A stretch of DNA of 32,000 nt from Mycolicibacterium smegmatis (GCF_001457595.1 NZ_LN831039.1:360001-392000); one strand, 5' to 3'; positions 8,321-28,141 are shown, numbered from the stretch's first letter. The notes: generated by a model from the letters alone, not told the origin. Numbers and translations are program-made.

Positions 8321-8377
8321 CCCGCCGATGCTAAATCGCCGGACCGTGGGTCGGGGCGGATTCGGCCGGTCCGGTGG

Positions 8378-11170: not shown

Positions 11171-11251
11171 AGCGTCCGTCCTTCACGTCCGCCGTCGGCG
11201 GACACCCACCCCTCGAGGAGATAGTAGTGATCCAGGGCAGATGCGGCACTG

Positions 11252-11698
11252 CTAGAGCACCACGGGTTTCGGTACCAGCACCACACGCCAGCCGTCGGGA
11301 TCCTCGAAGCTGAGCGCGCCGTGGTCGGTCCAGTACGGATTCTCGGCGGGCACGGGTTCGCACCCGTGCGCGGCGAGGCGTTCGACGACGTCGTACATCG
11401 CGGTTTCGGTCTCGAAGTAGAGAACCAGCAGATTCTCCTTCGACGGTGCCGGACAGGGACTTCCGCTGTGGCTGCTGGTGAACTCCAGGTGATACCGGCT
11501 GCCGGGGAGCCCGAGCATCACGCCGTCGAACCCGGCGTGGTCGGAGAAGCGGTACAGCACCGGCAGTCCGAGGATCCCGGCATAGAACCGCTCCACCTCG
11601 GCGAGTTTGTCGGTCGGGCGTGCGACGCGCACCTGCGCCACGCGCAGATCGGCAGGCCACGTGTGCTCGCGCGCTGTCTCGGTGGGTGTGATCGCCAT
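11252..11698 (-). CDS. VOC (glyoxalase/bleomycin-resistance/dioxygenase) family protein
   Basis: The 148-aa ORF has VOC-like beta-alpha-beta-beta-beta module sequence (VARPTDKLAEVERFYAGILGLPVLYRF...HLEF...LSFEDPDGWRVVL). GGAGGTGA (complement of 11700-11707) lies directly upstream of the ATG. Confidence 0.75.
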   Translation of the reverse strand: MAITPTETAREHTWPADLRVAQVRVARPTDKLAEVERFYAGILGLPVLYRFSDHAGFDGVMLGLPGSRYHLEFTSSHSGSPCPAPSKENLLVLYFETETAMYDVVERLAAHGCEPVPAENPYWTDHGALSFEDPDGWRVVLVPKPVVL

Positions 11699-11774
11699 GT
11701 CACCTCCATCTCGTGGGTCAACGACGCCACGCTAGAAGCTCAATGGCGGTTGAGGTCAAGGCGACTCGACCCGC

Positions 11775-12095
11775 TCAGCCCTCGGCGTGCTCGACCGCCG
11801 CGGTCACCTCAGGGGTCACCGGATCGAGCACGTCGTCGAAATCGTGATGTCTCGACACGTACTTCGCCACGTAGGGGCACACCGCGACGATGCGCTTGCC
11901 TGCCGCCCTGGTGTCGCCGAGTCCGGCCGAGACGAGTTCACCCGCGAGACCCCGCCCGCTGAACTTGTCGTCGACCTCGGTGTGGTGGAAGACGCGCTGA
12001 TCTCCGATGTCGACATAGAGCAGCTTGCCTGCGTGCTCACCGTCGACGGTGAGTTCGTAGTGGTGGGCGTCGGGGACATCACGGATTTCGGCCAT
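11775..12095 (-). CDS. small GNAT-like N-acetyltransferase (YjdJ-type, ~100 aa)
   Basis: Track ORF is 11775..12266. The conserved part starts at ATG (complement of 12093-12095): MAEIRDVPDAHHYELTVDGEHAGKLLYVDIGDQRVFHHTEVDDKFSGRGLAGELV...IVAVCPYV. This is typical of the single-domain GNAT family. The upstream 57 codons of the track ORF look non-coding. Confidence 0.7.
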   Translation of the reverse strand: MAEIRDVPDAHHYELTVDGEHAGKLLYVDIGDQRVFHHTEVDDKFSGRGLAGELVSAGLGDTRAAGKRIVAVCPYVAKYVSRHHDFDDVLDPVTPEVTAAVEHAEG

Positions 12096-12126
12096 GGTTC
12101 CCACTATGCCTGTGGAGTGCCACCGG

Positions 12127-12143
12127 ATGACCGTGTCGGTCAT
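12127..12143. promoter_or_regulatory. perfect inverted repeat ATGACCG-TGT-CGGTCAT in the GNAT/MFS divergent intergenic region; candidate operator
   Basis: Read directly from the sequence: 7-bp arms and a 3-nt spacer. It lies 32 nt upstream of the GNAT start and 62 nt upstream of the MFS start. Function is inferred. Confidence 0.3.
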
Positions 12144-12204
12144 GCCGCCGTTTGGCGCCGCCCGGGCCTGGCAATGTTGTTGCGGTGGGCCGACGAGGTA
12201 ACTC

Positions 12205-13806: not shown

Positions 13807-13845
13807 TGTGAACTGTGTCACCTCAGCACATTCAGGAGGTCGTCG

Positions 13846-14808
13846 ATGACGCGGACACACTTCGACTCCATCAGGGCCGGCGGTCTCAACTGGAGCAGCC
13901 TGCCCCTGAAACTCTTCGCGGGCGGCAACGCCAAGTTCTGGGACCCGGCCGACATCGACTTCTCACGCGACCGGGCCGACTGGGAGGCGCTGACCGAGCG
14001 TGAACGCGAGTACGCGACGCGCCTGTGCGCGGAGTTCATCGCAGGCGAGGAAGCGGTCACCAAGGACATCCAGCCGTTCATGTCGGCGATGCGCGCAGAG
14101 GGTCGACTCGGCGACGAGATGTACCTGACGCAGTTCGCGTTCGAGGAGGCCAAGCACACGCAGGTGTTCCGCATGTGGCTGGACGCGGTCGGGGTCACCG
14201 ACGACCTGCACTCCCTCATCGAGGAGGTGCCCGCCTACGTCCAGATCTTCTGCGAGGAGCTGCCCGCGGCCCTCGAAGCGCTCACCTCCGATCCGTCCCC
14301 GGCTGCGCAGGTGCGTGCCTCTGTGGTGTACAACCACGTGGTCGAGGGCATGCTCGCGTTGACGGGTTACTATGCCTGGCACCGCATTTGCGTCGACCGC
14401 GGCATTCTTCCCGGCATGCAGGAACTGGTGCGCCGCATCGGCGACGACGAGCGCAGGCACATGGCGTGGGGCACGTTCACGTGCCGCCGCCACGTCGCGG
14501 CCGACGACGCCAACTGGGCGGTGTTCGAGACCCACATGAACGAGCTCATCCCGGTTGCGCTGCGCCTCACGCAGGAGGGGTTCGCGCTGTACGGCGACGA
14601 CATCCCGTTCGGGCTGGAGGAGGGCGAGTTCCTGCAGTACTCCAGCGATCGGGGGATGCGCCGGTTCGGGACGATCAGCAGCGCACGTGGGCGCCCACTG
14701 GCCGAGATCGACGTCGACTACACACCGTTGCAGTTGGAGGACACGTTCGCCGACGAGGACGAGCGTGCGCTGACGGCGGTCAAAGCGGCCGCGGCCGCCG
14801 CGAACTGA
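13846..14808 (+). CDS. R2-like ligand-binding oxidase (R2lox; ferritin-like Mn/Fe protein, Rv0233-like)
   Basis: The 320-aa ORF has metal-ligand motifs of the RNR-R2-like fold ([42 protein letters not shown]). An AGGAGG Shine-Dalgarno lies 6 nt upstream of the ATG. Gene order next to aftD matches M. tuberculosis. Confidence 0.9.
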
Positions 14809-14826
14809 ACAGAACCGAAATGCTCG

Positions 14827-14865
14827 CTGTGGTGTCGGCGAACCCCTCCGTCGCCGACACCACAG
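14827..14865. terminator. perfect 15-bp stem / 9-nt loop hairpin between convergent genes; likely intrinsic (U-tract-less, mycobacterial-type) terminator
   Basis: CTGTGGTGTCGGCGA (14827-14841), loop ACCCCTCCG, TCGCCGACACCACAG (14851-14865). It starts 19 nt after the R2lox stop codon. No T-tract follows, so terminator function is inferred. Confidence 0.5.
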
Positions 14866-15082
14866 CCCTTGTGCACGCTGTGCGTGCCCGGGTTCGTGCC
14901 GACGACTCGCCGGATTTGCTGAAACGACAGCGGACCGCGGTGAGAACCCGGTTGCGCGCTCATCGTTGACCGACGTCTGTTCTCCCCCGGTCAGCAAACC
15001 TCGATGCCGCCGAAACAGCGCGTTCGATCACCGTAAGTACTGCACCGGCTCGCTGTCAACCAGTTGAGGTGGCAAGGATTGG

Positions 15083-18000
15083 CTAACCGGCGTGAGCGGA
15101 TGCTCCGGTGTGTTCAGGCTTAGCTGATCGGCCGTCTTCGCTCGGCTCCGGACGGTTCACCAGGCGGACCGCGGAGGCCGCGAGGAACGCCACCGAGAGC
15201 AACGCGAGGAACTGCACGCCGGGCGTGTGGCCGACGTAGCCGTCGACCGACCGCCACGGGTACTGACTCAGCACCGAACCCGCGAGGATCAGACCGCCCG
15301 CCGCCACGACGACCGTGACGTTGTCCCAGACTTTTTCGCCCGCGGCGCCGCGTCTGTTCAGAAGGATCCGCACGCCCATCGCGGCACCGACCACGAGCAG
15401 GCCGGCCACCCCGGAGATCGCCGTGCCTGCCACCAGCGCCGCCGCGCCGGTCAGCACCGGGCCCGGGTTCCAGGGCCGCGCGGGCGCGGCGGCCCGCACG
15501 GGCCTGCGCACCGGGATCAGTGCCAGAAGTGCCAGCAGCGGCAGGAGTGCCAGTCCGCCGATCAGTCCGACGCGGTACGGCATGTTCGACGCGAACGTGA
15601 GCGTCACCGTACCTTCGGTGCCCGCCGGGACCACCCAGCCCTGCTGCCACCCGTTGACCGTCACGGACTGCAGTTCCGCACCGGCGGGATCGTGCGCGGA
15701 CCAACCACGGTTGACGCTCTCGGGCACCACGAGCACGCGCTGCTGCGCCGCGGCGCTCACGCGCACCTCGCGACGGTCGGCGGTCCACGTTCCGGTTTCG
15801 GCCGAAGTCGTGGGCGCCGAACGGATCTCGTCGGCCGCAGGGGTCGGCAGCTCGACACCGTCGACGATGAAAGCGGCGCCGGGGCTCACCACCAGCTCCT
15901 GTTGGCCCGCGGGCAGCTTGACCGGCTCGGACCGGCACGGCCGTGCCGGGATCGGTTCGCCGTCCAGTAGCGCCCCGACCGTGGTGTGCACCGACGTCTG
16001 GATGAACTGGCCGGCGACCGCGATGATCGGGCCCTGGCCGCACGGCAGTGCCACCGCGCGCGACCGGTTCTTGGCCGCATCGGCCGCGCCGACGGGCGCC
16101 CCGCGTCCGTCGAGCACCGTGAGCTCGGCCAGCCCGGGAGGCTTGAGCTGGTCGAAACCCAGCGACGTGCGGTCGATGATGTCGTTCCAGGCCAGCAGCG
16201 ACACCGTCACGGTGTCGGTGACGCGGGGTTTGAGCGTCACTGTCCGCGGCTCGCCGTCGGCAGGAAGACGGTGCATCTGGGGTCCGTCGCCGAGGTCGAT
16301 CGCGACCAGCGTGGGATGCGCGGGCGGCTCGGTGTCACCCGGGACGATCCGCATACCCGAGACCTCGGTGGGTCTCGGCAGTTTGAGCGTGAGCGTGGGC
16401 GGGGTCTGGAACTGCACGACGCGTTGCGGCGCGGTCCACGACGTCCGCGGATCGCCGTCGGTCGCGGCGTAGGCCGAGCCGAGCACGTCGATCGGGTCGG
16501 AGTCGCCGAATGCCCTCGTGGTGTCCGGTTGTGCCACCAGATCGGCGAGGTTGGGCCCCTGACGCCCCCGGATCCACACCGTGGGCTGCACCTCGGTGTC
16601 CTGCGGCACCGTGAGGGTGCGGCTCAGGTTCACGGGTTCCTCGGAGGCCAGCGCCATCGCGGCGGCACACCGCACGCCCACCGGGCTGTCCGCGCAGCCC
16701 GGCCTGCCCAGCAGTTCGGTGCCCAGATCCCATTGCTGCACAACCGAACCCGCCGGCGGGCCGGGCACCTCGACGGTGTGGCGCAGCGTGACCGGATGCG
16801 CGAAGCCCGAAGCGTCGTACTGCGTGATCGCGAGGTCGGTGACGCCGAACTGCACACCCGGCGAACCGTCGTCGGTCGCCACCGCGGTGACCCGCACCCA
16901 CGGCGTCTCACCGACCGGCAGCGGGATCGTCAGCGGCTTGCCCGCGGTGTCGAAGCGCAGGCTGCTCGTTCCGGTCGCGGTGGCGATCTCGATGCGGCGG
17001 ACCTGCGCGCCGACCGCGGTCGCGCTCGGTGTGATGGTCAACGTGGCATTGGTGACCGGATGGTCGAAATCCACCTGAAGCCATTGGCCGACGGCGGCCT
17101 GCAACGCGTTGGACACCCACGCCGTCGAACTGTCGGAGTCGATGGCCGCGGCGGGTCCGGTCGCAGGCGCGACGTACGGCAGTGCGGTGGAGTCCGCCGC
17201 CGAACTCGACACCGACAGCCGTCCGCCGGTCCACTTGCCGTAGACCAGATCCGCGCCGTCGGACGGGTAGTCGGGCACGCGGTTGTAGGTGTGCCGCGCG
17301 TCGTCGGGGGTGCGGATCGCCGATGCGTGGTCGTCGACGCGGCCGTAGTCGATCTCGCGGGCCGTCGGCGTGTCGGTGACGATCACACCGTCGACCGGCA
17401 GACCGGCGCGACGGGCGTCGGCCGCGAGCAGCATCGGCCCCAGCGGGGGTTCCCCGTTGAGCCTGCGCCGCTCGTCGAGACGCAGCAGCGCCTCGGGGGC
17501 ACCCGCCACCCGGGTCATCGCGTCGCTGTCGACGAGGTAGGGGTGCATGGGCGAGCGCTGCTGAGAGGAACCGGCGTCGGCAGGCTCGACGCGGAAGATC
17601 TCGACCGCCGGATACCGGGGCCGCAGACCGCTGTCGGCCACGAAACCCTCCAGCGTGCCCGGCCCGACCGGATCGCCGAACTCGGCCACCTTGGTCAGAC
17701 CAGGTGAGCCCTCCACGGCCCGGTGCACCAGGATCGGGCGTGCGGACCGCGAGGTGTCCGGGTCCAGGTCGTTGCGTACCACGACGTAGGAGATCCCTTG
17801 TCGCGCAAGGGTGTCGGCCAGTCCTGGGGACGGCCGGCCGGAGGCGAACAGGCGTTGCACCGAGTCCAGTGCGCGGATCGTCTCGGGCGGTGTCAAGGGG
17901 ATCGAATCGCGGACGCCCCACGGGTTGTCGCCGAGCACCTGCAGCGGCTCGTCGTGGCTGTTGCCCCACACCTGGGTCGCGAACGGGGCGCCAGGGGCCA

Positions 18001-19327
18001 CCAGGACCCGGCCCCGGTCGGTGTTGTGCTCGTCGAGCCACGCGGCCGCGTCATGCCAGTGCTGCGGGATCGCGGTGAACGAGCCGGGCGGCGTCAGGCG
18101 CGCTGTCCACGCCAGCGACGTGCCCGCCGCGAGCGCCGAGAGGACGACGATCGCGACCGCGACCCGCTTGTCGCGTTCCGGATGCGCGAACGCGCTGACC
18201 CACACCGCCCGCGGCGCACTGCCGGGCAGCGGGATCCGCCCTAGCAGGTGCACCAGGCCCAGCGCCAGCGGCAGCCGGATCACCGGTTCCAGTTTCGCGA
18301 GGTTGCGCAGCGGGGTGCCCGAGCCGTCCAGGAACGCCTGCACCTGAAGCGCGACCGGCGAACCGAGCCCACCCGAATAGCCGAGGCCCAGCAGCACCAC
18401 GCCGATCAACAGCATGGTGATCAGCCGGCCGCGGGCAGGCATGGTCCGCAGCGCGAGCCCAGCCAGTCCGGCCGCGGCCACGACCGTGGTGGCGAGCACC
18501 GCGGTCGTGCTGGTCACCAGCGACGCGCCTGCAGTCGCCGACGGCGCGACGAACGGCGTCCAGCTCATGGTGCCGCGCAGCATCTCGGTGAGTGACATCC
18601 ACTGCGTCGTCACGCCCGACGACTCGATGAAGTCGAGGAACGGCGGGCTGATGCGGCCCAGCATGAGCAGCGCCACCACCCACCACGTGACGGCGAGCGC
18701 ACCGCACAGCAGCCACCACGCCGTGAACCGCCACCACAGCCGGTTCGGGCGGTGGCATGCCCACCAGATCACCGCGGCCAGACATCCCGTGAGGGTCGCG
18801 ACGGCGTTGACGGCACCCATGAGTGCGACCGCACCGGCCGAGCGGGCCGCCATGAGGCGCACCGAATGCTGCCCGCGCAGGGCCAGGATGACCGGCAACA
18901 GAACCCACGGCGCCAGCATCATCGGCAGGGTCTCCGACGAGATCGCGCCGAGCGTCGTGAGCACCCGCGGCGACAGCGCGAACGCGGCCGCCCCGATCAG
19001 CCGCGACGGGGTGCTGCCGATCCCCAGTGCTTCGGCCACACGCAGCACACCCCAGAACCCGACCGTCAGCAGCAGCGCCCACCACAGGCGCTGCGTGACC
19101 CAGCCGGGAACCCCCAGCACATCGCCGAGCAGGAAGAACGTGCCGTGCGGGAACAGGTAGCCGTAGGCCTGGTTCTGCGCCTGCCCGAACGGCAGGTCGC
19201 TGTTCCACAGATTGAACGCACGGGCCAGAAACCGCAGCGGGTTCGCCGTGAGGTCGAGTTTCGTGTCGGGTGAGATCTGTCCCGGTGACTGGGCGAATGT
19301 CAGGACGAGTGTCGCCGCGGCGACCAC
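15083..19327 (-). CDS. aftD: arabinofuranosyltransferase AftD (GT-C membrane glycosyltransferase with large periplasmic carbohydrate-binding region)
   Basis: The 1414-aa ORF has an N-terminal multi-TM GT-C region beginning ...SPDTKLDLTANPLRFLARAFNLWNSDLPFGQAQNQAYGYLFPHG. A large soluble middle region and C-terminal TM helices follow. Size, and position between the R2lox gene and the Rv0236A-like/lpqI genes, match Rv0236c. Confidence 0.9.
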   Translation of the reverse strand: MVAAATLVLTFAQSPGQISPDTKLDLTANPLRFLARAFNLWNSDLPFGQAQNQAYGYLFPHGTFFLLGDVLGVPGWVTQRLWWALLLTVGFWGVLRVAEALGIGSTPSRLIGAAAFALSPRVLTTLGAISSETLPMMLAPWVLLPVILALRGQHSVRLMAARSAGAVALMGAVNAVATLTGCLAAVIWWACHRPNRLWWRFTAWWLLCGALAVTWWVVALLMLGRISPPFLDFIESSGVTTQWMSLTEMLRGTMSWTPFVAPSATAGASLVTSTTAVLATTVVAAAGLAGLALRTMPARGRLITMLLIGVVLLGLGYSGGLGSPVALQVQAFLDGSGTPLRNLAKLEPVIRLPLALGLVHLLGRIPLPGSAPRAVWVSAFAHPERDKRVAVAIVVLSALAAGTSLAWTARLTPPGSFTAIPQHWHDAAAWLDEHNTDRGRVLVAPGAPFATQVWGNSHDEPLQVLGDNPWGVRDSIPLTPPETIRALDSVQRLFASGRPSPGLADTLARQGISYVVVRNDLDPDTSRSARPILVHRAVEGSPGLTKVAEFGDPVGPGTLEGFVADSGLRPRYPAVEIFRVEPADAGSSQQRSPMHPYLVDSDAMTRVAGAPEALLRLDERRRLNGEPPLGPMLLAADARRAGLPVDGVIVTDTPTAREIDYGRVDDHASAIRTPDDARHTYNRVPDYPSDGADLVYGKWTGGRLSVSSSAADSTALPYVAPATGPAAAIDSDSSTAWVSNALQAAVGQWLQVDFDHPVTNATLTITPSATAVGAQVRRIEIATATGTSSLRFDTAGKPLTIPLPVGETPWVRVTAVATDDGSPGVQFGVTDLAITQYDASGFAHPVTLRHTVEVPGPPAGSVVQQWDLGTELLGRPGCADSPVGVRCAAAMALASEEPVNLSRTLTVPQDTEVQPTVWIRGRQGPNLADLVAQPDTTRAFGDSDPIDVLGSAYAATDGDPRTSWTAPQRVVQFQTPPTLTLKLPRPTEVSGMRIVPGDTEPPAHPTLVAIDLGDGPQMHRLPADGEPRTVTLKPRVTDTVTVSLLAWNDIIDRTSLGFDQLKPPGLAELTVLDGRGAPVGAADAAKNRSRAVALPCGQGPIIAVAGQFIQTSVHTTVGALLDGEPIPARPCRSEPVKLPAGQQELVVSPGAAFIVDGVELPTPAADEIRSAPTTSAETGTWTADRREVRVSAAAQQRVLVVPESVNRGWSAHDPAGAELQSVTVNGWQQGWVVPAGTEGTVTLTFASNMPYRVGLIGGLALLPLLALLALIPVRRPVRAAAPARPWNPGPVLTGAAALVAGTAISGVAGLLVVGAAMGVRILLNRRGAAGEKVWDNVTVVVAAGGLILAGSVLSQYPWRSVDGYVGHTPGVQFLALLSVAFLAASAVRLVNRPEPSEDGRSAKPEHTGASAHAG

Positions 19328-19361
19328 CCACAGCCAGCGCCGCGACAGCGGCGGGGCCGGA

Positions 19362-19535
19362 CTAAGAACGGTCGCCGTACTCGACCCGGTTGAGAACGGA
19401 GGACGCCGGATCGCCCGCTTGCAGAGGAGGCTTTGTGTCCTGCTGCACCATCAGCGTCACTCCGAAGACGGCGGCCGCGCCCAGCAACAGGCCGACCACA
19501 ATGCTGGCCGCAGAGGGTACGACGAACCGGTTCAC
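19362..19535 (-). CDS. small membrane-anchored/secreted protein, DUF2613 (Rv0236A-like), 57 aa
   Basis: Below the ORF-track size cut-off and found by hand. GTG (complement of 19533-19535) gives MNRFVVPSAASIVVGLLLGAAAVFGVTLMVQQDTKPPLQAGDPASSVLNRVEYGDRS, ending at TAG (complement of 19362-19364). It has one TM/signal-like helix and ends 34 nt before the aftD start, matching the Rv0236A-aftD arrangement. Confidence 0.65.
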   Translation of the reverse strand: MNRFVVPSAASIVVGLLLGAAAVFGVTLMVQQDTKPPLQAGDPASSVLNRVEYGDRS

Positions 19536-19583
19536 CCGGCCAACCTAACACGGCGACAGCAATGCCCATGACGTCCCAGCGAA

Positions 19584-19622
19584 GGTGCCGGGCCCCAAAA
19601 GATCGATTCCGGCCCGGGCACC
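19584..19622. promoter_or_regulatory. imperfect inverted repeat GGTGCCGGGCC-N16-GGCCCGGGCACC upstream of lpqI; candidate operator or RNA stem
   Basis: Read directly: 11 matched arm positions with a 1-nt bulge in the 12-nt right arm. The spacer contains GATCGAT. It lies just upstream of a TAGGGT -10-like hexamer (19626-19631) and the lpqI ATG at 19640. Confidence 0.3.
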
Positions 19623-19639
19623 GGCTAGGGTCGGGGCCC

Positions 19640-20803
19640 ATGGCTTCACCGCGTCTGCTCGCGACGTTCGTAGCGCTGTCCGGACTGTTGCTGGCCTGCT
19701 CGCCGGCCGCGCCGCCCGACGCAGGCCCCTCAACTGGGCCTTCCGGTTCGCCCGACATGCAGCCCATGGCCACCACCGCGCCGCTTCTCGAGGCCCCCGC
19801 GACGTGTGACCTCGCCGCGCTGCCCGCCCGCGACAAGCTCGCCCAGTTGCTCACGGTCGGCGTGACCGACGCCGCAGACGCGCGTGCCGTCGTAGCGGAT
19901 CACCACGTCGGCGGCATCATGATCGGCAGCTGGACGGACCTGTCGATGCTCACCGACGGGTCTCTCGGCGACATCGCGGCGTCGGCGGCGCCGCTGCCGC
20001 TCGCGGTCAGCGTCGACGAAGAAGGCGGCCGGGTGTCGCGGCTGGCGTCGCTGATCGGCAGCCAGCCCTCGGCCCGTGAGCTCGCGCGCACCAAGACCGC
20101 CGACGAGGTGTACGGCATCGCGCTCGACCGCGGCCGCAAGATGCGCGACCTGGGTGTCACGGTCGACTTCGCACCCGTCGTCGACGTCACCGACGCCGCG
20201 GCCGACACCGTGATCGGGGATCGCTCGTTCGGCTCCGATCCCGCGGTCGTCACCGAGTACGCAGGCGCCTACGCGCGTGGCCTGCGCGACGCGGGCGTGC
20301 TGCCGGTGCTCAAGCACTTCCCGGGCCACGGCCACGCCTCGGGTGACTCCCACACCGGTGGGGTCACCACGCCGCCGCTCGATGTCCTGATGGGTGACGA
20401 TCTCGTGCCGTACCGCACGCTCACCGGGCAGGCGCCGGTCGCGGTCATGGTCGGCCACATGCAGGTACCGGGCCTGACCGGTTCCGATCCGGCGAGCCTG
20501 AGCCCCGCCGCCTACAACCTGCTGCGCTCGGGTGGCTACGGCGGCCCGGGTTTCGGCGGCCTGGTCTACACCGACGATCTGTCCAGCATGGGCGCCATCA
20601 ACCAGCGCTACGGCGTCGCCGACGCCGTGCTGCGGGCCCTGCAGGCCGGCGCCGACAACGCGCTGTGGATCACCACGGCCGAGGTGCCCGCGGTGCTCGA
20701 CCGGCTCGAGCAGGCGCTGGCGTCCGGCGAGCTGAACCAGGGCGCGGTGGACGCCTCGCTGCAGCGCAACGCCGCGGTCAAGGGCCCGCTGCGCTGCGGC
20801 TGA
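19640..20803 (+). CDS. lpqI: lipoprotein LpqI, GH3 beta-N-acetylhexosaminidase (NagZ-like)
   Basis: Track ORF is 19433..20803. The start is placed at ATG 19640, giving MASPRLLATFVALSGLLLAC with a perfect lipobox (LLAC). The GH3/NagZ catalytic region is KHFPGHGHASGDSHTG. The resulting 387 aa matches Rv0237 in size. Confidence 0.85.
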   Translation: MASPRLLATFVALSGLLLACSPAAPPDAGPSTGPSGSPDMQPMATTAPLLEAPATCDLAALPARDKLAQLLTVGVTDAADARAVVADHHVGGIMIGSWTDLSMLTDGSLGDIAASAAPLPLAVSVDEEGGRVSRLASLIGSQPSARELARTKTADEVYGIALDRGRKMRDLGVTVDFAPVVDVTDAAADTVIGDRSFGSDPAVVTEYAGAYARGLRDAGVLPVLKHFPGHGHASGDSHTGGVTTPPLDVLMGDDLVPYRTLTGQAPVAVMVGHMQVPGLTGSDPASLSPAAYNLLRSGGYGGPGFGGLVYTDDLSSMGAINQRYGVADAVLRALQAGADNALWITTAEVPAVLDRLEQALASGELNQGAVDASLQRNAAVKGPLRCG

Positions 20804-20814
20804 CGCCGCCCGGT

Positions 20815-21978
20815 TCACCGACCGAGCCCGTACACCCGCGCGGCGTTCTGCGCGCCGATCAGCTCGACGATCCTGATCGCGTCGATCTCCGTACAGTCCC
20901 CGGCCCGCACCCACCCGCCGAGCACCAGCCCCATCGCGCGGCGCCACAGCACCGACCCCAGCAGATGCAGTTCGGGCGGTCCGTACGCGTCCGACGAGTA
21001 CAGCTGCTTGGCGAACGGCGCCGTCTCCAGCGCCTCGGCGACCAGCCCGACCGATCGTGTGCCTAGGTGGTTCACGGCCAGGCCGACGTCGAAGTGCACG
21101 TGGTCGAACGCCTGCGCGAGGTAACCGGCCTGGCGGTGGAACGGATAGCAGTGCAACAGCAGCACCGGGACCGGGGCCATGCAACGCAACAACGGCAACA
21201 GCAACAGCGGGTCGGTGCGGTGCAGGTCCAGGTCGCGATCCCCGAACCCGACATGCACCTGCACGGGGAGGCCGCGTTCGGCGGCCTCGTGCACGCCGAA
21301 CGCGACGAGCACCGGATCCTGCAGCCGCAGCGGTCCCGGTCCGTCGGCCGCCGCGCGGGCACGAGCGGCCACGTCGTCGTCACCCGGCCGCGCCCAGTCG
21401 ATGTCGAAACCCGTGCGGTAGGCGGCGATGGTCTTGGCGCCCACGATGTCCGTCGACTGTGCGGCGGCGTCCAGCGCGCTGCGGAAGAGGTCGGCGAAAG
21501 TATCTGCACCAGAATCGGATTCGAGAATATCCTCGGCCAGCCGCTCGAGCCGCAAAATCGCCGAGGCGGGCCGGCCGCTGAGCGCCGCGAGCCGTTCGGG
21601 CGTGGTGATGCTGTCCGCCGCGAAGCCCGTGTCGACGATCCAGTGTTCCACGCCTGCGTGTGCGAGCAGGGTCGACGACAGCTCTTCCGGCTCCAACTCG
21701 CTGCGCCGGGCGAAGTACTCGTCGGCACCCGCGTGCGCGGGCAGCCCAAGAACCGGTGCGCACCAACGCCGGATCGACAAGCCGAGCGGCGAGTCGAACT
21801 GGGTCATGAAATCCGGCACCGGAGCGGTCGAGGCCTCGTTGATCGATGCCTCGAACTCGGCGCGGCCGACGCGTACGGCGCTCGCGCCGTGGACGTGGTG
21901 ATCGATCAGACCGACCGTGCGCAGACGTTCGGCCAGTTCGTCGGGCACCTCGTTCGTGACCCCGTCGAAGACGTCCAT
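20815..21978 (-). CDS. metal-dependent amidohydrolase-family protein (amidohydrolase_2-like)
   Basis: The 387-aa ORF has the N-terminal HxH metal motif (LIDHHVHG). Downstream His/Asp positions (VQVHVGFGD, LLLHCYPF, YSSDAYG) fit a TIM-barrel hydrolase. It is divergent from a TetR gene. Confidence 0.75.
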   Translation of the reverse strand: MDVFDGVTNEVPDELAERLRTVGLIDHHVHGASAVRVGRAEFEASINEASTAPVPDFMTQFDSPLGLSIRRWCAPVLGLPAHAGADEYFARRSELEPEELSSTLLAHAGVEHWIVDTGFAADSITTPERLAALSGRPASAILRLERLAEDILESDSGADTFADLFRSALDAAAQSTDIVGAKTIAAYRTGFDIDWARPGDDDVAARARAAADGPGPLRLQDPVLVAFGVHEAAERGLPVQVHVGFGDRDLDLHRTDPLLLLPLLRCMAPVPVLLLHCYPFHRQAGYLAQAFDHVHFDVGLAVNHLGTRSVGLVAEALETAPFAKQLYSSDAYGPPELHLLGSVLWRRAMGLVLGGWVRAGDCTEIDAIRIVELIGAQNAARVYGLGR

Positions 21979-22028
21979 GCTCCCAGTATCGGGTCAGGCG
22001 TTTCCGGTGGGCGGGTTACCCTGTGGGG

Positions 22029-22661
22029 ATGGCAGGTGGAACCAAGCGGCTGCCGCGCGCCGTGCGTGAGCAACAGATGCTCGATGCGGCCGTGCAGATG
22101 TTCTCGGTGAACGGCTACCACGAGACATCCATGGATGCGATCGCCGCGGCGGCCGAGATCTCGAAGCCGATGCTGTACCTGTACTACGGCTCGAAAGAGG
22201 AACTGTTCGGGGCCTGTCTCGACCGTGAACTGAGCCGTTTCGTCGACACCGTGCGCGGCCAGATCGACTTCAGCCAGAGCCCCAAGGAACTGCTGCGCAC
22301 CGCGGTGCTGGCGTTCCTCACCTACATCGACCGCAACCGGGCCTCGTGGATGGTGCTCTACACGCAGGCGACCAGTTCGCAGGCGTTCGCGCACACCGTG
22401 CGTGAAGGGCGCGAACGCATCATCGACCTGGTGGCCCGTCTGCTCAGCACCGGCACACGTAACCCCCAGCCCGACAGCGACTTCGAGATGATGGCGGTCG
22501 CGCTGGTCGGCGCGGGGGAGGCGATCGCCACCCGGGTCAGCACGGGCGACGCCGACGTCGACGAGGCGGCCGAACTGATGATCAACCTGTTCTGGCGCGG
22601 TCTGAAGGGCACGCCGTCCGACGCCGGGACCCCGCCGGTGTCGGCGGGAAGCTCGGGATAG
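22029..22661 (+). CDS. TetR/AcrR-family transcriptional regulator (Rv0238-like)
   Basis: The TetR HTH is REQQMLDAAVQMFSVNGYHETSMDAIAAAAEISKPMLYLYYGSKEELF. The track start is GTG 22023. ATG 22029 is preferred because TACCCT (22017-22022) lies exactly 6 nt upstream, a leaderless-type arrangement. Confidence 0.85.
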   Translation: MAGGTKRLPRAVREQQMLDAAVQMFSVNGYHETSMDAIAAAAEISKPMLYLYYGSKEELFGACLDRELSRFVDTVRGQIDFSQSPKELLRTAVLAFLTYIDRNRASWMVLYTQATSSQAFAHTVREGRERIIDLVARLLSTGTRNPQPDSDFEMMAVALVGAGEAIATRVSTGDADVDEAAELMINLFWRGLKGTPSDAGTPPVSAGSSG

Positions 22662-22727
22662 CCGGTTCTCCACAGGCCGAGAAAATTGCCGCACGGGCGC
22701 GGTCATAAGTGGCGTTAGGCTGCTGGA

Positions 22728-23027
22728 GTGGGCTCACCGCTGAAAGTTGCTCCAGGTCAACTGCGCTCGGCCGCCGCGGAAGAGGTCGCGCTCGGCACGG
22801 CCGTCGCGGCCCTCGGTGTCGGAGATCTGCTGAGTGCCGCGGTCGCAGCGCTGCCGCGCCTGCAGAGCGGCAAGGCCTGCGGACATGCCGCGGTGATCGT
22901 GGATGCGGCGGTCAAGGCCGCCGCCGACGAGGTCGCCGCCCACGCGGACAAGCTGTCGGCGGCCGCCGCGGCCTACGAAGGCACCGACTGTGCGCAGGCA
23001 CACCGGCTGATCCGAACCATGGACTGA
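22728..23027 (+). CDS. small alanine-rich helical protein, EspC/DUF2580-like (type VII secretion target-like)
   Basis: The 99-aa ORF begins MGSPLKVAPGQLRSAAAEEV..., the xLxVxPxxL opening typical of ESX-secretion-associated small proteins. It ends ...AAAYEGTDCAQAHRLI. The stop is 2 nt before the next gene's ATG. TAGGCT (22716-22721) lies 6 nt upstream of the GTG. The family call is from pattern recognition only. Confidence 0.55.
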   Translation: MGSPLKVAPGQLRSAAAEEVALGTAVAALGVGDLLSAAVAALPRLQSGKACGHAAVIVDAAVKAAADEVAAHADKLSAAAAAYEGTDCAQAHRLIRTMD

Positions 23028-23029
23028 CC

Positions 23030-24910
23030 ATGCCGGGTTCCATCTCCGAGGTCCGCTCGTCCGACCCGGATGCGCTCGTGCGGGCGGGCACCGACATCGG
23101 CAACCGCGCGGGCCTGCTGCAAACCCAGATGGACCGGCAGCAGGCGGTCATCGACGATCTGCGCCGCGGGTGGAACGGCGCGTCGGCCGACGCCGCGATC
23201 GAAAGCGCCGAACGGTCGCTGCAGCACATGCGGCGGTTGCACGATTCGCTCACCACGCTGCAGTCTGCGCTGCAGACCGGCGGTGCCGACCTGGCGCAGC
23301 AGCGCGACCGGATCGTGAACCACGTCGACCAGTTGCACGCGCAGGGGTGGCAGGTCGCCGACGACGGCACGGTGTCGATCCGCCCCGGCAGCGTGCTGGA
23401 CTTCTTCGCCAAGGTCAGCCCGGTGCAACGCGTGATGCTCGAGGCGCTCGCCGCTCGGGCTTCGGCCGAACTCAAGGCGATGCTGGCGCAGTTCGACGCC
23501 ACCGATGTGACTGTGGGAGCGCAGATCCGCGACGCGGTCGCGGGACTGACCGCCCACGGGCCCGCGCCCGCGTCGCTCCCGCCGAACAACGCCAAGGCGC
23601 TCGTGGACCGCCTCGCGGGCATGACGCCCGACGAGCGCCGGGAGTTCCTCGCGGGGTTGAGCCCCGAGACCGTGCACGAGATGGTGCTCGCCGATCCGGA
23701 GACCATGGGCAACACCGACGGCGTGCCGTTCGAGACCCGCATCGAGGCCAATGACATCAACATCCGCAACGCCCTTGAGGAGGAGTTGGCCAAGCCGTCG
23801 CCCGATCAGGCCAGGGTGCAGCAGTTACAGGCCATGCTGACCCCGATCAAGGATCCGGCGGGAACCGGAAAACTGGTGCCGCGCAAGTTCGTTGCGTTTT
23901 CGCCGGACGGCAACGGGCGCATGATCGAGATGATCGGGGAGATCAGGCCGGGCATCAAGGGCGTCGGCGTCGTGGTGCCGGGCACCAACACGAACCTCAA
24001 CGGCAGCGGCTCGAATCACGCGTCGGCGGTGGAACTGTCCAAACAGTCCGGGTCTCCGGTGTTCCTCTACATGGACGGTGACTTCCCGCAGGGCCTGGAC
24101 AAGGCGGCCGACCCGGCCTACGCGGCGTCGATGGCGCCGAAACTCGTGTCGTTCGGCCACGAGATCGACAGCGAGGTGGGCATCGGCGCTCCCGACACCC
24201 CCGTCACCTACATCGGCCACTCCTACGGCGGCGCCATCGTCGGGACCGCCGAACAGATGGGGCTGCGCGCCGACCGTGTCCTGCATGCGTCGTCGGCAGG
24301 CACCGGGATCCTCAGCGGCGAGTACACCAACCCGAACCCCGATGTGCAGCGGTTCTCGATGACCGCACCGGGCGACCCGATCAGCCTTGTCCAGTCGTTG
24401 CCGCGCGACGTGGCGATCTCCAGTGTCCCGGGCGTCGATTCCATCCCGGGCATACCGCACAACACCGACGGACGGATCGGCAACCCGCTGGGCGGCCTGC
24501 CGTCGGCGACCGACCCGGACAACATCCCCGGCGTCACGCGGTTGGACACGGGTTACTACGGCGATGAGGGCGCGCATCCCAACCAGGTCATCGTCGGGCC
24601 GGATGGGCACGGAAAGTACTGGGACGACTACGATTCCGATGCGTTCAAGAACATGGTGGCGGTCATCAGCGGTGGCGAGGCGACCGGCTATGTGGAGCGC
24701 GGCATCGAAACCAACTACGTCGACATCGATCTCGGCGACGACGGCGACTTCCGTGACGAGGCCGCCGATCAGGCGAAGGCGGGCGCCGCGCCCAAGGTGC
24801 CCCGGCTGCCATGGGATGACAACGGAACCTACGAAAGGCGCCAGCATCCGTGGGATAATCCGCGCGTGACGGACAATCCTGGACTCGGGCCGCGGGTGCC
24901 GGTGAGATGA
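23030..24910 (+). CDS. WXG-type N-terminal helical domain fused to a DUF1023 alpha/beta hydrolase (putative T7SS-secreted hydrolase)
   Basis: Track ORF is 22709..24910. The real start is taken as ATG 23030 (MPGSISEVRSSDPDALVRAG...). The N-terminal ~100 aa form a helix-turn-helix with a W-x-G turn (DDLRRGWNGASADAA). The C-terminal half has the DUF1023 pattern (VGVVVPGTNTNL...) and the nucleophile elbow YIGHSYGGAIVG (GxSxG). 626 aa. Confidence 0.75.
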   Translation: MPGSISEVRSSDPDALVRAGTDIGNRAGLLQTQMDRQQAVIDDLRRGWNGASADAAIESAERSLQHMRRLHDSLTTLQSALQTGGADLAQQRDRIVNHVDQLHAQGWQVADDGTVSIRPGSVLDFFAKVSPVQRVMLEALAARASAELKAMLAQFDATDVTVGAQIRDAVAGLTAHGPAPASLPPNNAKALVDRLAGMTPDERREFLAGLSPETVHEMVLADPETMGNTDGVPFETRIEANDINIRNALEEELAKPSPDQARVQQLQAMLTPIKDPAGTGKLVPRKFVAFSPDGNGRMIEMIGEIRPGIKGVGVVVPGTNTNLNGSGSNHASAVELSKQSGSPVFLYMDGDFPQGLDKAADPAYAASMAPKLVSFGHEIDSEVGIGAPDTPVTYIGHSYGGAIVGTAEQMGLRADRVLHASSAGTGILSGEYTNPNPDVQRFSMTAPGDPISLVQSLPRDVAISSVPGVDSIPGIPHNTDGRIGNPLGGLPSATDPDNIPGVTRLDTGYYGDEGAHPNQVIVGPDGHGKYWDDYDSDAFKNMVAVISGGEATGYVERGIETNYVDIDLGDDGDFRDEAADQAKAGAAPKVPRLPWDDNGTYERRQHPWDNPRVTDNPGLGPRVPVR

Positions 24911-25434
24911 GGCTTCGCGCAGCAGTTTTCGTGACCGCGCTGATGTCTGTGGTGCTCATCGCCGCAGGCGCATGCGGGCCCTCAGGTGAGGATTCCACCG
25001 ACGAGAAGAAGGCTCAGCCCCCGATGACACCACCGACCGAGCTGACCGTCACCGAGGCCGCGCGCGTCGCGGCCGGTTACGTCTCGATGATCCTCGGAAA
25101 ACCCGTCGACCCCGACCCGGCCATGGCGCGCAAGATCGGCTGCCGCACCGACGATGCGCTGATGTCGGTGGGCCCGCCGTGGAAGGTGCAGGTCTACGAG
25201 TGGCTCGTCGACCCCGCGCCCGAACTCGTCGAAGGTGCGCTGACACGCATCGACACCCTGCTCGACGAGGGGTTCGAACCGATCCCGTCGGATCGGCCGG
25301 ACCAGGACTCACCCACCCACAAGGCCTACCGGGACGCGCGCGGCTACGTGGTCTCGGTCAAGGCCGAGACCACCGCGGGTGGTGTCTACGGGCTCGACGT
25401 GCACGCGACCTCGCCGTGCGCCGACGAGGGTTAG
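24907..25434 (+). CDS. putative lipoprotein (175 aa), start overlaps the upstream hydrolase stop
   Basis: MRLRAAVFVTALMSVVLIAAGACGPSGEDS is a signal peptide plus a lipobox-like AGAC. The ATG at 24907 overlaps the hydrolase TGA (ATGA, 24907-24910). No recognisable enzymatic motif. Confidence 0.7.
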   Translation: MRLRAAVFVTALMSVVLIAAGACGPSGEDSTDEKKAQPPMTPPTELTVTEAARVAAGYVSMILGKPVDPDPAMARKIGCRTDDALMSVGPPWKVQVYEWLVDPAPELVEGALTRIDTLLDEGFEPIPSDRPDQDSPTHKAYRDARGYVVSVKAETTAGGVYGLDVHATSPCADEG

Positions 25435-25440
25435 CCGCGA

Positions 25441-26529
25441 TCAGACCGCCACGCCCTCGATGAGGCTGTAGGGGCATGCCGTGGGCACCACGCGGGTCAG
25501 GCGGAAGCCGGCCTCGGTGTAGAGCTTGCGGTACTGCGCCTCGGTGCGCTCGCGCGCCGCGTTGCCGATGAGCATCTCCATGTCCACCCACTTGAGCGGG
25601 AACGCGCGGTCGTGGTCGGGGATGACGCCCTCGACGAGCAGCAAGGTGGCGCCCGTGCGCGCCGCGGCCCGCACGTTGCGCAGGATCTCCGTGGCCGGCG
25701 CATCGGCCCAGTCGTGGATGATGTTCTTCATCACGTACAGGTCGGCGCCGTCGGGCACCTCGTCGAAGAACGATCCGGGGACCACCTGCACACGGTCGGC
25801 CACGCCGTGCCGCGCGAGCATCTCCGGGGCCCCCTCGACCACGTTGGGCAGGTCGTAGAGCACGCCCTTGGCCTGCGGTGCGGATCCCAGGATCGCCGAC
25901 AGCAGACGGCCGTGGCCGCCGCCCACGTCGGCGATGGTGCCGAACCGCGTGAAGTCGTAGGCCGCGATCAGCGGCGTGATCGCCAGCTCGGACATGCTGG
26001 TCATGGCGTCGTTGAAGATCGTGCCCAGCTCGGGCTGGGACGCGATGTAGTCGAATGGCTCCATGCCGCGCAGCGTGCGGATCGCGGACTCGCCCGTCCG
26101 CACCGCGTCGGCGAGGTGGCTCCAGTGTTCGCGGTGCTGCGCCGCGCCCACGAACTTGGCCATCCCCGCCATCGACACCTGTGCATCGGTGCGCAGCGTG
26201 TCGCCCAGCGGGTTGAGGGCGTAGCGGCCGTCGCGGGTACGGCGGAAAACCCCTTCGCCGACCAGAGCGCGCATCAGGCGATCGAGCGCGTCGGCGTCGG
26301 CGCCGACCCGCCGCGCGAGCTCGTCGGCGCGCAGCGGACCGCCGGACAGCGCGTCGGCCACGCCGAGCTGCGCGGCCGCGGTGATTCCCTGCGCCAGCCA
26401 CGCGCCGAGGAGCAGCTCGAGCATCGCGGCCTCGGGCGGGACGCTGCGCAGCCACAGCCTGCGCACGTGGTGGCGGGCACGCTCGACGGCTCGGACCAGG
26501 CGGGCCGGCGGCACCTTTGCGGAAGTCAC
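25441..26529 (-). CDS. class I SAM-dependent O-methyltransferase (Methyltransf_2 type with N-terminal dimerisation/wHTH domain)
   Basis: Track ORF is 25441..26793. The SAM-binding motif is IADVGGGHGRLL, followed by VLYDLP, GSFFDEVPDGADLYVMKNIIHDW and LLLVEGVIPD. Start placed at GTG (complement of 26527-26529; VTSAKVPPARL...), 362 aa. TACAGT (complement of 26536-26541) lies exactly 6 nt upstream. The longer track ORF would run through the jetA promoter and start. Confidence 0.8.
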   Translation of the reverse strand: MTSAKVPPARLVRAVERARHHVRRLWLRSVPPEAAMLELLLGAWLAQGITAAAQLGVADALSGGPLRADELARRVGADADALDRLMRALVGEGVFRRTRDGRYALNPLGDTLRTDAQVSMAGMAKFVGAAQHREHWSHLADAVRTGESAIRTLRGMEPFDYIASQPELGTIFNDAMTSMSELAITPLIAAYDFTRFGTIADVGGGHGRLLSAILGSAPQAKGVLYDLPNVVEGAPEMLARHGVADRVQVVPGSFFDEVPDGADLYVMKNIIHDWADAPATEILRNVRAAARTGATLLLVEGVIPDHDRAFPLKWVDMEMLIGNAARERTEAQYRKLYTEAGFRLTRVVPTACPYSLIEGVAV

Positions 26530-26674
26530 GGCTGAACTGTAAAGCAGATGACTGAGGTGTACGTCACTTACGCATCCCCTGCGCGCCGGGCCCACCCCAG
26601 CTGGCGCCGGGACACGTCCGCCGTGGCGCCTAGAGTAGGGCCGATGCATACGCTGCGGATCGGAGGGAAGCGAC

Positions 26675-28141
26675 ATGCCCGACGCTGATGTCGGTCGTCC
26701 GTCGTTGCAGCGGCTCCACGAGCTCAACCGTGAGGTGGCCGAGTCGCGGTCGGTGCGGCTGCTCGTGGCCAACAACCTGGCCGGATACCTCACGCTGATG
26801 GAACGTCACCTCGATCGCGGGACCAAGCTCACCGAGCCCGAACTCGTCGCCCGGCTCGAGCGCGATCTGGCCGATCTGGGCGCCGACGGCGAGCAGTCGG
26901 GGCTGGCGCTCATCAAGTACTGGGCGAGCCAGGGCTGGCTGCACCGCATCACCGAACAGGCCGGCGACGGTGAGCGCAACGTCTGCTACCTGACCTACGA
27001 GGCCCGCGCGGTCCTCGACTTTGCCCGCCGGATGCGCCGCGAGGACACCATCGCCACCGGCGGCTCGATCGCGGGCATCGCGGCGGGTCTGCGCAGGGTG
27101 GCCGGTCAGGTCAGCAACGACCCCGAGCGCATCCGCGCCGACATCGAGGCCGAGATCGACCGTCTGCGCGCCGAACTCGACGCGCTCGACGAGGGACGCC
27201 GCCCCGAGCCCGACCCGCTGGACGTCGAGGACGAGGCGCGTGCGATCGCACTGCAGATGGAACAGATCATCTCCGACATCGGGCAGTACGGCGCGATGCT
27301 GAACCGCATCACCACACGCCTGCTCGACGCGTCGGCCGACAGCGACGTCGGCTACCGCGAACGCCAGCGGCAGCTGTTCGACGACTACGAATCGCTGTTC
27401 GCGTCGCGCGAGAGCGCGTCGTACACCGCGTTCACGCGCATGATCCAGGATCCCGAGCAGCGCGCCGCGCTGGTGGCCGACATCGAGCTGGTGACCAGCC
27501 AGCTGCCGCAGCTCGACCCGAGCCTGCGCGAGGTGATGTCCGGGTTCTTCACGCTGGTGTCGGCGCAGACCGCCGAGGTTGGCCGCACCCGTCAGCGGTG
27601 TGCACGCCGCATCAAGCGCTTCGTGGCGTCGGGCACGCTGGAGGAGAGCCGTGGCGTCACCCGCCAGCTCAACGATGCCCTTGCGGCCGCCAACGCCCTG
27701 CTGAGCGTGTCCCTGGCCGACAGCCGCGTCGGGTTCGAGGTCCCTCTGGCGCGTGCCGACTTCAACTCGATCGGCGCGGTGGCGTTCAAGATCCGCGACG
27801 CGGTGCCGCCCACGCCCGCGCAGCCGTCCGAGGGCGAGGTGAATCTGTCGGCGTTCGGCGCGCTCGCCGCGCAGGTCGACGCCACCGAACTCGCCGAACT
27901 CGTCAACGACACCGTCGTGTCGCGGCCGCTGCCGCTCAACGAGGCCATCGGCATGCTCGACTCGGCGTATCTCGGCCACGTCATCGTGCTGTGGTCGTGG
28001 GCCCTCAAGCAGCCTGCCGTCGGCAACGCCGAGTCGGTGCGGGTGCGGTTCCGTTCTCTGGAAGGCCCCGACCGCGAAATCGAAGTGCCGAAACTGGTTT
28101 TCACCGAACCGATCCCGATCGTCAGCGAGAGTTTGTTATGA
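26675..28141 (+). CDS. jetA: Wadjet JetA / EptA (DUF3375, MksF-like kleisin subunit)
   Basis: The 488-aa ORF has a GGAGGG Shine-Dalgarno (26662-26667) 7 nt upstream of the ATG. It is helical, has no catalytic motifs, and has a central coiled segment ([21 protein letters not shown]). It is first in an overlapping three-gene set ending in an SMC-like ATPase. The family call is from size, order and sequence character, not an HMM. Confidence 0.8.

Follow-up and report, generated by a model that had tools for sequence, protein, structure and literature searches.

A chimeric three-gene operon for a putative type VII-secreted DUF1023 hydrolase in Mycolicibacterium smegmatis

The closest described relatives of the operon considered here come from Mycobacteroides abscessus. 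The SigM regulon of this species, which is focused on ESX-4, one of the type VII (ESX) secretion systems, was defined and one of its direct targets, operon 4, was found to encode a small protein (Mab_0251), a WXG alpha/beta hydrolase (Mab_0252) and a lipoprotein (Mab_0253); the first two were modeled with AlphaFold3 as a helix bundle, and the SigM –35 element was given as GGAACCG (Canestrari et al. 2026, PMC13491425). In M. abscessus subsp. massiliense, EatA forms complexes with two small Tap partners, depends on ESX-4 and is toxic to mycobacteria via its catalysis, being neutralized by the downstream lipoprotein EatI; in the accompanying census of M. abscessus, alpha/beta hydrolases rank with the payloads identified most often in loci of this type (Benedict et al. 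2026, PMC13444075). The export signal in PE/PPE and EsxA/EsxB pairs is bipartite, with a WxG motif on one chain and YxxxD/E on a partner of ~100 amino acids (aa; PMC13444075, PMC13491425). Here, we analyzed a 32,000-nucleotide (nt) stretch of Mycolicibacterium smegmatis DNA (GCF_001457595.1, NZ_LN831039.1:360001–392000; hereafter, the window), which contains an operon for a small helical protein, a hydrolase with a WXG domain and a DUF1023 domain, and a predicted lipoprotein. We put at roughly 55% the probability that this operon encodes a type VII substrate in which the small partner and the WXG domain constitute the export signal, the DUF1023 enzyme works on an extracytoplasmic envelope ester, with the lipoprotein as cognate inhibitor. 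The core of this reading, a type VII substrate composed of the partner and the WXG/DUF1023 hydrolase and accompanied by a cognate envelope lipoprotein, had been put forward in a first-pass annotation, and our analysis supports it because the N-terminal module of the hydrolase is also found on toxin and cell-wall payloads, the YxxxD motif of the partner is conserved, M. abscessus appears to possess a counterpart in Mab_0251–0253 and EatA provides a precedent for the layout.

All three genes lie on the + strand. The partner open reading frame (ORF; 22728–23027) starts with GTG and encodes 99 aa opening MGSPLKVAPGQL. The hydrolase ORF (23030–24910; ATG start, 626 aa, containing RRGWNGASADAA) begins 2 nt past the partner stop codon, and the lipoprotein ORF (24907–25434; ATG start, 175 aa) shares an ATGA with the hydrolase stop, an overlapping junction that points to translational coupling. 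These boundaries, sizes and junctions agree in full with those of the first-pass annotation. The hydrolase is 98% identical to a protein of M. smegmatis mc2155 (ABK73417.1 / AFP36839.1) and its gene carries an existing annotation as a type VII target, and a literature search on MSMEG_0363–0367 returned neither identification nor characterization of these genes.

Domain searches assigned hydrolase residues 12–90 to Pfam WXG100 (PF06013; 35.1 bits, threshold 27.3) and residues 292–454 to Abhydrolase_8 (PF06259, the former DUF1023; 34.8 bits, threshold 20.5); NCBIfam WXG100_ESAT6 (TIGR03930; E = 8.8e-10) gave 38.7 bits, below its cut-off of 44.85. The N-terminus had initially been described as WXG100/LXG-type. 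The WXG100 part of that label stands and the LXG part does not, since Pfam at E up to 0.1 yielded WXG100, Abhydrolase_8 and a weak FlgK match for the hydrolase, and no LXG family. In an AlphaFold2 model built on 61 homologs (mean predicted local distance difference test score, pLDDT, 90.6), the postulated hairpin is recovered as helices 13–47 and 51–104 flanking a W48-N49-G50 turn. W48 and G50 are invariant in the 61 homologs, as is the HSYGG core of the GHSYGG elbow (GxSxG; residues 396–401), whose G396 is at least 90% conserved. The predicted catalytic triad of S398 (codon 24221–24223), D449 and H527, whose conservation the first-pass annotation had singled out for checking, is likewise invariant across all 61 aligned sequences, and the DUF1023 pattern it had reported is borne out by the Pfam match. 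DUF1023 was reportedly predicted to be an alpha/beta hydrolase by Zheng et al. in 2005; we know of no member with a characterized activity or substrate, so that the earlier caveat about a biochemically largely uncharacterized family holds.

Residues 1–185 (23030–23584) form an exchangeable N-terminal module, putatively for targeting, which consists of the WXG hairpin (13–104), a small beta element, a helix (131–175) and a disordered linker (177–185). It is followed by a helical domain (residues 188–270; 23591–23839; pLDDT above 90) preceding the catalytic alpha/beta-hydrolase domain (residues 286–560; 23885–24709), whose fold was modeled at high confidence, and by a C-terminal tail (residues 561–626 and the stop codon; 24710–24910) ending PWDNPRVTDNPGLGPRVPVR. 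In the alignment, the tail motif PWDNPRVTDNPGxGPxIxV is kept in mycobacteria, Nocardia and Williamsia and is absent in Gordonia; the model places short strands at 612–615 and 622–625, with mostly high confidence. Among solved structures, a sequence search found nothing beyond EsxB, matched weakly (E = 0.045), and xylanases, whose matches were spurious. Foldseek comparison of the hydrolase model with the PDB retrieved only generic HSL-type carboxylesterases (E about 1e-5, 12–18% identity), and when a viral library was included, the matches were still confined to generic HSL-type esterases and alpha/beta hydrolases, nothing resembling mycobacteriophage LysB or a cutinase being among them.

The opening of the 99-aa partner fits the xLxVxPxxL pattern reported for it. 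As to its description as EspC-like, the window protein itself scores 16.2 bits against Pfam EspC (PF10824, T7SS_ESX_EspC), below the threshold of 23.5, and the label consequently rests on the family: EspC is the best Pfam family for 6/6 clade orthologs of the partner (best E = 3.2e-5), is matched by 8 of the 20 partners of the other, M. abscessus/Nocardia type, and reaches 27.8 bits, above threshold, for the partner of a Nocardia ortholog. Neither PE nor PPE was among the Pfam matches listed at E up to 0.1. The second helix region of the partner ends in a YxxxD motif (Y83-E-G-T-D87), for which all six clade orthologs have Y/F-x-x-x-D, with D87 invariant. Since the translation of the first 180 hydrolase residues contains no Tyr, YxxxD must be supplied by the partner. 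WxG on the hydrolase and YxxxD on the partner fit an ESX bipartite signal divided over two proteins, and the partner itself would be an EspC-like helical protein with a Tap- or PE-like role.

To which cargo this module is otherwise attached emerged from a search of residues 1–185 against 1.84 billion representative proteins. It matched 126 proteins of about 70 to 780 aa in total length, in most of them at the N-terminus. Among the 61 matches scanned with Pfam, the payload was Abhydrolase_8 in nine, EspA-like TPR in four, NlpC/P60 in three and DUF4185 in two cases, with Ntox33, Tox-REase-5, CHAP, Peptidase_C2 and DUF6973 found once each. One carrier domain bearing variable payloads is a hallmark of polymorphic effector families, and residues 1–185 are best described as a putative targeting module common to toxin-type and cell-wall payloads. 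DUF4185 is the family since renamed GH183, home of EatA; one of the DUF4185 examples is followed by an overlapping gene whose product has an LLTAGC lipobox.

The hydrolase family profile was used to fetch 80 genomic loci. Full-length homologs occur in Mycolicibacterium, Mycobacteroides, Nocardia, Williamsia and Gordonia, with catalytic domains 53–93% identical across genera. A lipoprotein homolog is encoded directly downstream in 37/80 loci (the window itself excluded), and an ORF of ~90–100 aa directly upstream in nearly every locus with a full upstream flank. Because the partner ORF and the lipoprotein recur in five genera, the arrangement is not due to chance and the three genes behave as a unit. 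When the window is counted, a single hydrolase–lipoprotein pair is present in 36 of the 38 lipoprotein-bearing loci. Beyond the three-gene set, the 80 loci have no neighbor common to several genera, synteny being found only within genera or clades. Nocardia loci encode an EspG-family chaperone (116.9 bits), a point in favor of the type VII reading; its gene lies ~2.3 kb beyond that of the lipoprotein, on the downstream side. In Nocardia salmonicida (L012, 8933–11389) and about 15 Nocardia loci, two co-oriented genes (128 and 438 aa) lie between the lipoprotein and EspG genes; neither product has a Pfam match, the 438-aa protein has a WTG motif and a Pro/Thr-rich tail, and together with EspG they may represent a PE/PPE-like pair with its chaperone. 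A paralogous cassette found in Mycolicibacterium iranicum, M. hippocampi and others (L064–L080) encodes a hydrolase about 34% identical to that of the window and a 92-aa partner of the Pfam family DUF7162 (51.7 bits) carrying F-E-R-A-D. No homolog of the window lipoprotein was detected in L064–L080, and in L064 the next gene downstream is on the opposite strand.

Comparison of individual hydrolase segments pointed to a mixed ancestry. The M. abscessus member is a 623-aa DUF1023 protein (P0315, cluster of P0025), which occurs on 1000 contigs or more. Four complete chromosomes encode it at about 237–283 kb on the + strand, between a preceding 97-aa gene and an overlapping 170-aa gene, and its promoter reads GAAACCG-N15-CGTCTAAC, one mismatch away from the published SigM –35 element. 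Over residues 1–180, 190–280, 281–560 and 561–626, P0315 is 24%, 67%, 80% and 64% identical to the window hydrolase, respectively, as compared with 62%, 80%, 78% and 74% for a same-clade ortholog (P0017) and 47%, 20%, 26% and 18% for P0176, a DUF1023 protein followed by a lipoprotein annotated as PF27220 (LppJ). In other words, the M. abscessus catalytic body is as near to that of the window as is the body of the same-clade ortholog while its N-terminus is unrelated, and P0176 shows the reverse, with the breakpoint near residues 181–190, at the disordered linker. The helical domain is conserved jointly with the catalytic body, as it is 59–65% identical to that of the Mycobacteroides-type homologs P0023–P0027, whose N-termini share 20–28%. 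The partner follows the N-terminus: in profile comparisons, it matched the partner of P0176 (which carries QYEATD) with 97.8% probability (E = 1.2e-12, 38% identity) and the M. abscessus/Nocardia-type partners, in which I/V/T replaces the Tyr of YxxxD, with 46% probability. Partner and N-terminal module co-vary as a unit.

The sequence upstream of the operon likewise sets the smegmatis/fortuitum clade apart. A TAGGCT hexamer (TAnGCT in orthologs; 22716–22721, + strand) lies 6 nt before the GTG start of the partner gene, and when the upstream regions of six clade orthologs are aligned, no columns are better conserved than this hexamer and its 6–7-nt spacing to the start. By eye, no Shine–Dalgarno sequence is visible upstream of the partner start. 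Leaderless mycobacterial transcripts usually show just such a TAnGCT element close to the start codon and lack a Shine–Dalgarno sequence, and the hexamer is probably the –10 element of such a transcript. The SigM-type motif GGAAC-N15–20-CGTC is present upstream of the Nocardia, Gordonia and Mycobacteroides orthologs and was not found upstream of the operon in the window, nor in the rest of the clade; its four matches elsewhere in the window compare with 3.9 expected by chance. A scan for the sigma-70 consensus returned nothing in 21900–25700. In Nocardia, a GGAACC-N16-CGTCCAAC element is conserved upstream of the orthologs, and Gordonia has variants such as AGAACCG...CGTCTAA, the flanking sequence of which is not conserved. 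The other cassette type has a GGAGG ribosome-binding site.

Two further upstream motifs were noticed. AAAATTG at 22682–22688, which precedes the start codon by ~40 nt, is conserved in the clade orthologs; with 27 nt between the two, it is too distant from the hexamer for a standard –35 element, and it overlaps a terminator-like hairpin on the – strand (22702–22689). The motif CCTGTGGATAAC / CCTGTGGACAAC, the reverse complement of the DnaA-box-like TTATCCACA / TTGTCCACA, is located about 45 nt upstream of the small gene in L064–L080 and upstream of the –35 element in L055–L065. It recurs 5′ of the Mycolicibacterium paralogous cassettes and the Gordonia orthologs and could be a regulator binding site.

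By these sequence comparisons, the window hydrolase is a chimera, whose body and lipoprotein derive from a Mab_0252-type lineage and whose partner and N-terminus derive from an LppJ-linked DUF1023 lineage. On the simplest account, the ancestor of the smegmatis/fortuitum clade would have undergone a single recombination that replaced promoter, partner and carrier, with enzyme and lipoprotein kept. A cassette of the latter lineage is present in a Logan assembly (ERR4818252; L086, 2768–5277), where a 78-aa partner and a 571-aa WXG/Abhydrolase_8 protein are encoded together with a 178-aa lipoprotein annotated as PF27220 (LppJ); it is the apparent donor lineage of the window partner and N-terminal module. 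More tentatively, a conserved effector–lipoprotein pair, under a SigM-type promoter in Nocardia, Gordonia and Mycobacteroides (linked to ESX-4 in M. abscessus), may have been re-equipped in this one step with an Rv2079/LppJ-type partner gene and carrier, and with a leaderless-type instead of a SigM-type promoter; if the carrier sets the ESX route and regulation, the DUF1023 body might then be a hydrolase of mycomembrane or cell-wall esters. Should the carrier module indeed set both the ESX machine and the regulatory program, the operon would amount to a natural re-routing experiment for mapping ESX substrate specificity in an organism that is easy to work with.

The N-terminus of the third protein is signal-peptide-like, reading MRLRAAVFVTALMSVVLIAAGAC followed by G. 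Its Cys23 is at least 90% conserved, in line with the initial call of a lipoprotein, and the lipobox is canonical in some orthologs, e.g. LLAGC in Williamsia. Within the family, C79, C171 and a GPPW motif are invariant, the conserved Cys pair suggesting an extracytoplasmic lipoprotein. The protein is 48% identical to the partner lipoprotein of the M. abscessus operon. It matched no Pfam or NCBIfam family, and a Foldseek search with its model found nothing significant in the PDB (best E = 0.009, TM-score at most 0.3). Profile comparison of the family with an LppJ-family protein gave 1.2% probability, confined to the signal peptide, and comparison with an EatI-like lipoprotein revealed no convincing homology beyond the signal peptide. 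By analogy, the lipoprotein is a candidate cognate inhibitor (immunity protein) of the hydrolase. In Williamsia muralis (L041, 7872–13119), the lipoprotein has five paralogs (two on the + and three on the – strand, one of them truncated), all encoded no more than 6 kb from the hydrolase, with an LppA-family lipoprotein (PF16708, 124.8 bits) lying in their midst, and one Gordonia locus has two lipoprotein copies. These paralog arrays resemble immunity arrays, an indirect argument for a toxin.

A mechanism can be proposed from these elements. The 99-aa protein and the WXG hairpin of the hydrolase would form a four-helix bundle that sets the partner's YxxxD beside the WxG turn, thereby presenting a bipartite signal to an ESX machine encoded elsewhere in the genome, with ESX-1, ESX-3 and ESX-4 of M. 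smegmatis as candidates. Once outside the cytoplasm, the DUF1023 cargo with its Ser-Asp-His triad would hydrolyze an ester-linked envelope component, either in a neighboring cell or in the envelope of the producer. The co-translated lipoprotein would bind and inhibit the enzyme in the periplasmic space, protecting the producer.

A toxin–immunity function of this kind is backed by the company kept by the carrier domain, by the EatA precedent and by the lipoprotein arrays. Several observations weigh against the preferred reading. The window contains no ESX core genes, as the first-pass annotation had already noted, and the partner stays below the Pfam threshold for EspC. Because the fold searches yield generic esterases only, they provide no substrate clue. 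The proposed inhibitor role draws on analogy and gene order, the lipoprotein having no significant structural or family match. The identification of the M. abscessus ortholog with Mab_0251–0253 fits in position, strand, gene sizes, domain content and promoter, and was made on these grounds, not by accession. Finally, a toxin–immunity system would be expected to diversify fast, and a well-conserved and mostly single pair is more suggestive of a stable role in the envelope. This last point fits equally well the main alternative, possible if rather doubtful, namely that the enzyme, exported through ESX or by another route, performs housekeeping remodeling of esters in the mycomembrane or cell wall of the producer itself, with the lipoprotein serving as an anchor, regulator or activator and no other cell being targeted. 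Joint conservation of body and lipoprotein in five genera, the near-uniform single pairs, the stable chromosomal synteny of the region in five species and the wide occurrence of the M. abscessus protein across contigs would fit such a role, and envelope remodeling has been raised as one possibility (PMC13491425). However, the N-terminal module is common to nuclease-type toxins (Ntox33, Tox-REase-5) and an EatA-type arabinanase, the Williamsia lipoproteins are arrayed like immunity genes, and polymorphic effector systems typically swap their targeting regions as modules.

Less likely still is a lipase or esterase effector secreted by ESX against eukaryotic membranes, such as those of amoebae or macrophages, with the lipoprotein shielding the producer's own lipids. 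PMC13491425 describes a contribution of ESX-4 to phagosomal survival of M. abscessus and proposes SigM-regulon proteins as candidates, and the fold matches are to carboxylesterases and lipases. Yet conservation of a periplasm-facing lipoprotein in soil genera favors a bacterial envelope target, many members of the family come from non-pathogenic Nocardia, Gordonia and Williamsia, and there is no similarity to known host-directed lipases. The lack of ESX genes from the window, the sub-threshold partner and, on inspection by eye only, the lack of an apparent Sec or Tat signal on the hydrolase would also suit a cytoplasmic, non-secreted esterase, whose WXG-like hairpin would serve for oligomerization or as a scaffold and whose neighbors would be functionally unrelated. 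This we consider highly improbable given the 2-nt and ATGA junctions and the three-gene conservation across genera, the complementary WxG and YxxxD motifs that fit a bipartite signal, the co-variation of partner and N-terminal module, and the SigM-type promoters of orthologs. An ESX-exported enzyme with a cognate lipoprotein inhibitor is the reading we prefer.

The genomic surroundings of the operon were also inspected. A TetR-family regulator gene (22023–22661, + strand; Pfam TetR_N and TetR_C_46) ends 66 nt upstream of the operon; as a conserved neighbor in the smegmatis/fortuitum clade, it is mentioned for context only and not as a demonstrated regulator of the operon. Downstream, an O-methyltransferase (OMT) gene (25441–26793, – strand; Pfam/PADLOC) is followed by the Wadjet gene jetA (26675–28141 and onward, + strand; PADLOC JetA 831 bits, Pfam DUF3375 365 bits), part of the EptABCD plasmid-restriction locus of M. 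smegmatis. Proximity to Wadjet had been taken as a sign of an accessory or conflict-related region. This suggestion did not hold up, because M. smegmatis, M. septicum, M. houstonense, M. porcinum and strain URHD0025 all have the TetR–partner–hydrolase–lipoprotein–OMT–JetA block in synteny: the adjacency represents old clade synteny and provides no evidence of a functional link or a recent accessory island. A functional link between the operon and Wadjet was rejected, as the adjacency is restricted to these five smegmatis/fortuitum-clade species and absent in other genera. PADLOC matched JetA and no defense-system model for the partner, the hydrolase or the lipoprotein. Farther upstream, the window encodes a phosphotriesterase-family protein (7343–8320, – strand), an AAA_16 + LuxR regulator (8378–11170, – strand), an MFS_3 transporter (12205–13806), an R2-like protein (13846–14808), AftD (15083–19327, – strand; Pfam/PADLOC) and a GH3 enzyme (19433–20803; Pfam/PADLOC). 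These are core chromosomal genes (7343–20803), which match the Rv0230c–Rv0238 region of Mycobacterium tuberculosis, a region not known to carry the cassette.

M. smegmatis is a standard model for mycobacterial ESX secretion and, to our knowledge, few ESX cargo enzymes have a known activity. The operon offers a test case in this respect, since its conserved DUF1023 serine hydrolase comes with a lipoprotein of its own and has, in the pathogen M. abscessus, an ortholog that appears to belong to the SigM/ESX-4 regulon. As a natural chimera that differs from this ortholog in targeting module, partner and promoter, it could reveal what determines the choice of ESX route. Were esters of the mycomembrane or cell wall its substrate, the enzyme would represent a second biochemical class among the recently described inter-mycobacterial toxins and point to a drug-relevant and unexploited envelope target.

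Among known systems, several share parts of this architecture. Lipases with type VII targeting domains have a precedent in LipY, a PE-domain lipase and ESX-5 substrate carrying its type VII domain at the N-terminus. In contrast to PE/PPE proteins and LipY, the window enzyme itself bears the WxG half of the signal, YxxxD resides on a separate EspC-like protein and the hydrolase belongs to another family. In Staphylococcus aureus, the lipase toxin TslA is reportedly secreted by a T7SSb system with the helical partners TlaA1–A2 and countered by the immunity lipoprotein TilA (Garrett et al. 2023, cited in PMC13444075). Compared by description, TslA resembles the proposed system as a type VII-secreted lipase-type toxin with helical partners and lipoprotein immunity and differs from it in belonging to a Firmicute T7SSb, in the reverse arrangement, with an LXG-like domain at the C-terminus, and in its lipase family and immunity lipoproteins.

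The LppJ-linked cassettes represented by L086 correspond to the window operon in encoding a partner, a WXG and Abhydrolase_8 hydrolase and a lipoprotein, and their partner is homologous to that of the window, as is the N-terminal module (47% identity). They differ in the catalytic body (18–26% identity) and in their lipoprotein, whose LppJ-family assignment (PF27220) is a precomputed annotation and which is unrelated to that of the window. Rv2078–Rv2079–lppJ (Rv2080) of M. tuberculosis has the same layout as L086 and may be linked to it. A link to Rv2796c–2798c is likewise conceivable, although a search with Rv2797c/lppV gave only noise. A list of predicted M. tuberculosis esterases/lipases includes Rv2079 (PMC13209886).

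EatA/TapA1–TapA2/EatI matches the window operon in order and junctions, with upstream helical partner(s), an effector whose helical N-terminus serves for targeting and whose C-terminal enzyme degrades the envelope, and a lipoprotein inhibitor encoded downstream, all three roles being putative in the window. Moreover, a DUF4185 (GH183-type) protein with an EatA-type layout (P0240) has the N-terminal module of the window hydrolase (E = 4.9e-8). The payloads, however, are a GH183 arabinanase in one case and a DUF1023 serine hydrolase in the other, EatA has two Tap partners and the window hydrolase one, and the lipoproteins are unrelated beyond the signal peptide; ESX-4 dependence, toxicity and inhibition have been demonstrated for EatA, whereas the window operon is known from its sequence.

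The nearest counterpart is Mab_0251–0253, with which the operon shares the order of a ~97-aa partner, a WXG hydrolase and a lipoprotein, and high identity in the catalytic domain (80%) and the lipoprotein (48%). The two differ in the N-terminal 180 residues (24% identity), in their barely related partners (46% probability), that of M. abscessus type being devoid of the motif Tyr, and in the upstream region, where the window has TAnGCT 6 nt from the start and no GGAAC...CGTC. Because the window operon lost the SigM-type promoter, the ESX-4 assignment of the M. abscessus ortholog is not simply transferable. The kind of operon described here is already known from the two 2026 studies and its annotation was largely anticipated; what the M. 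smegmatis locus adds to these systems is the observation of a swap of carrier, partner and promoter around a retained enzyme and lipoprotein.

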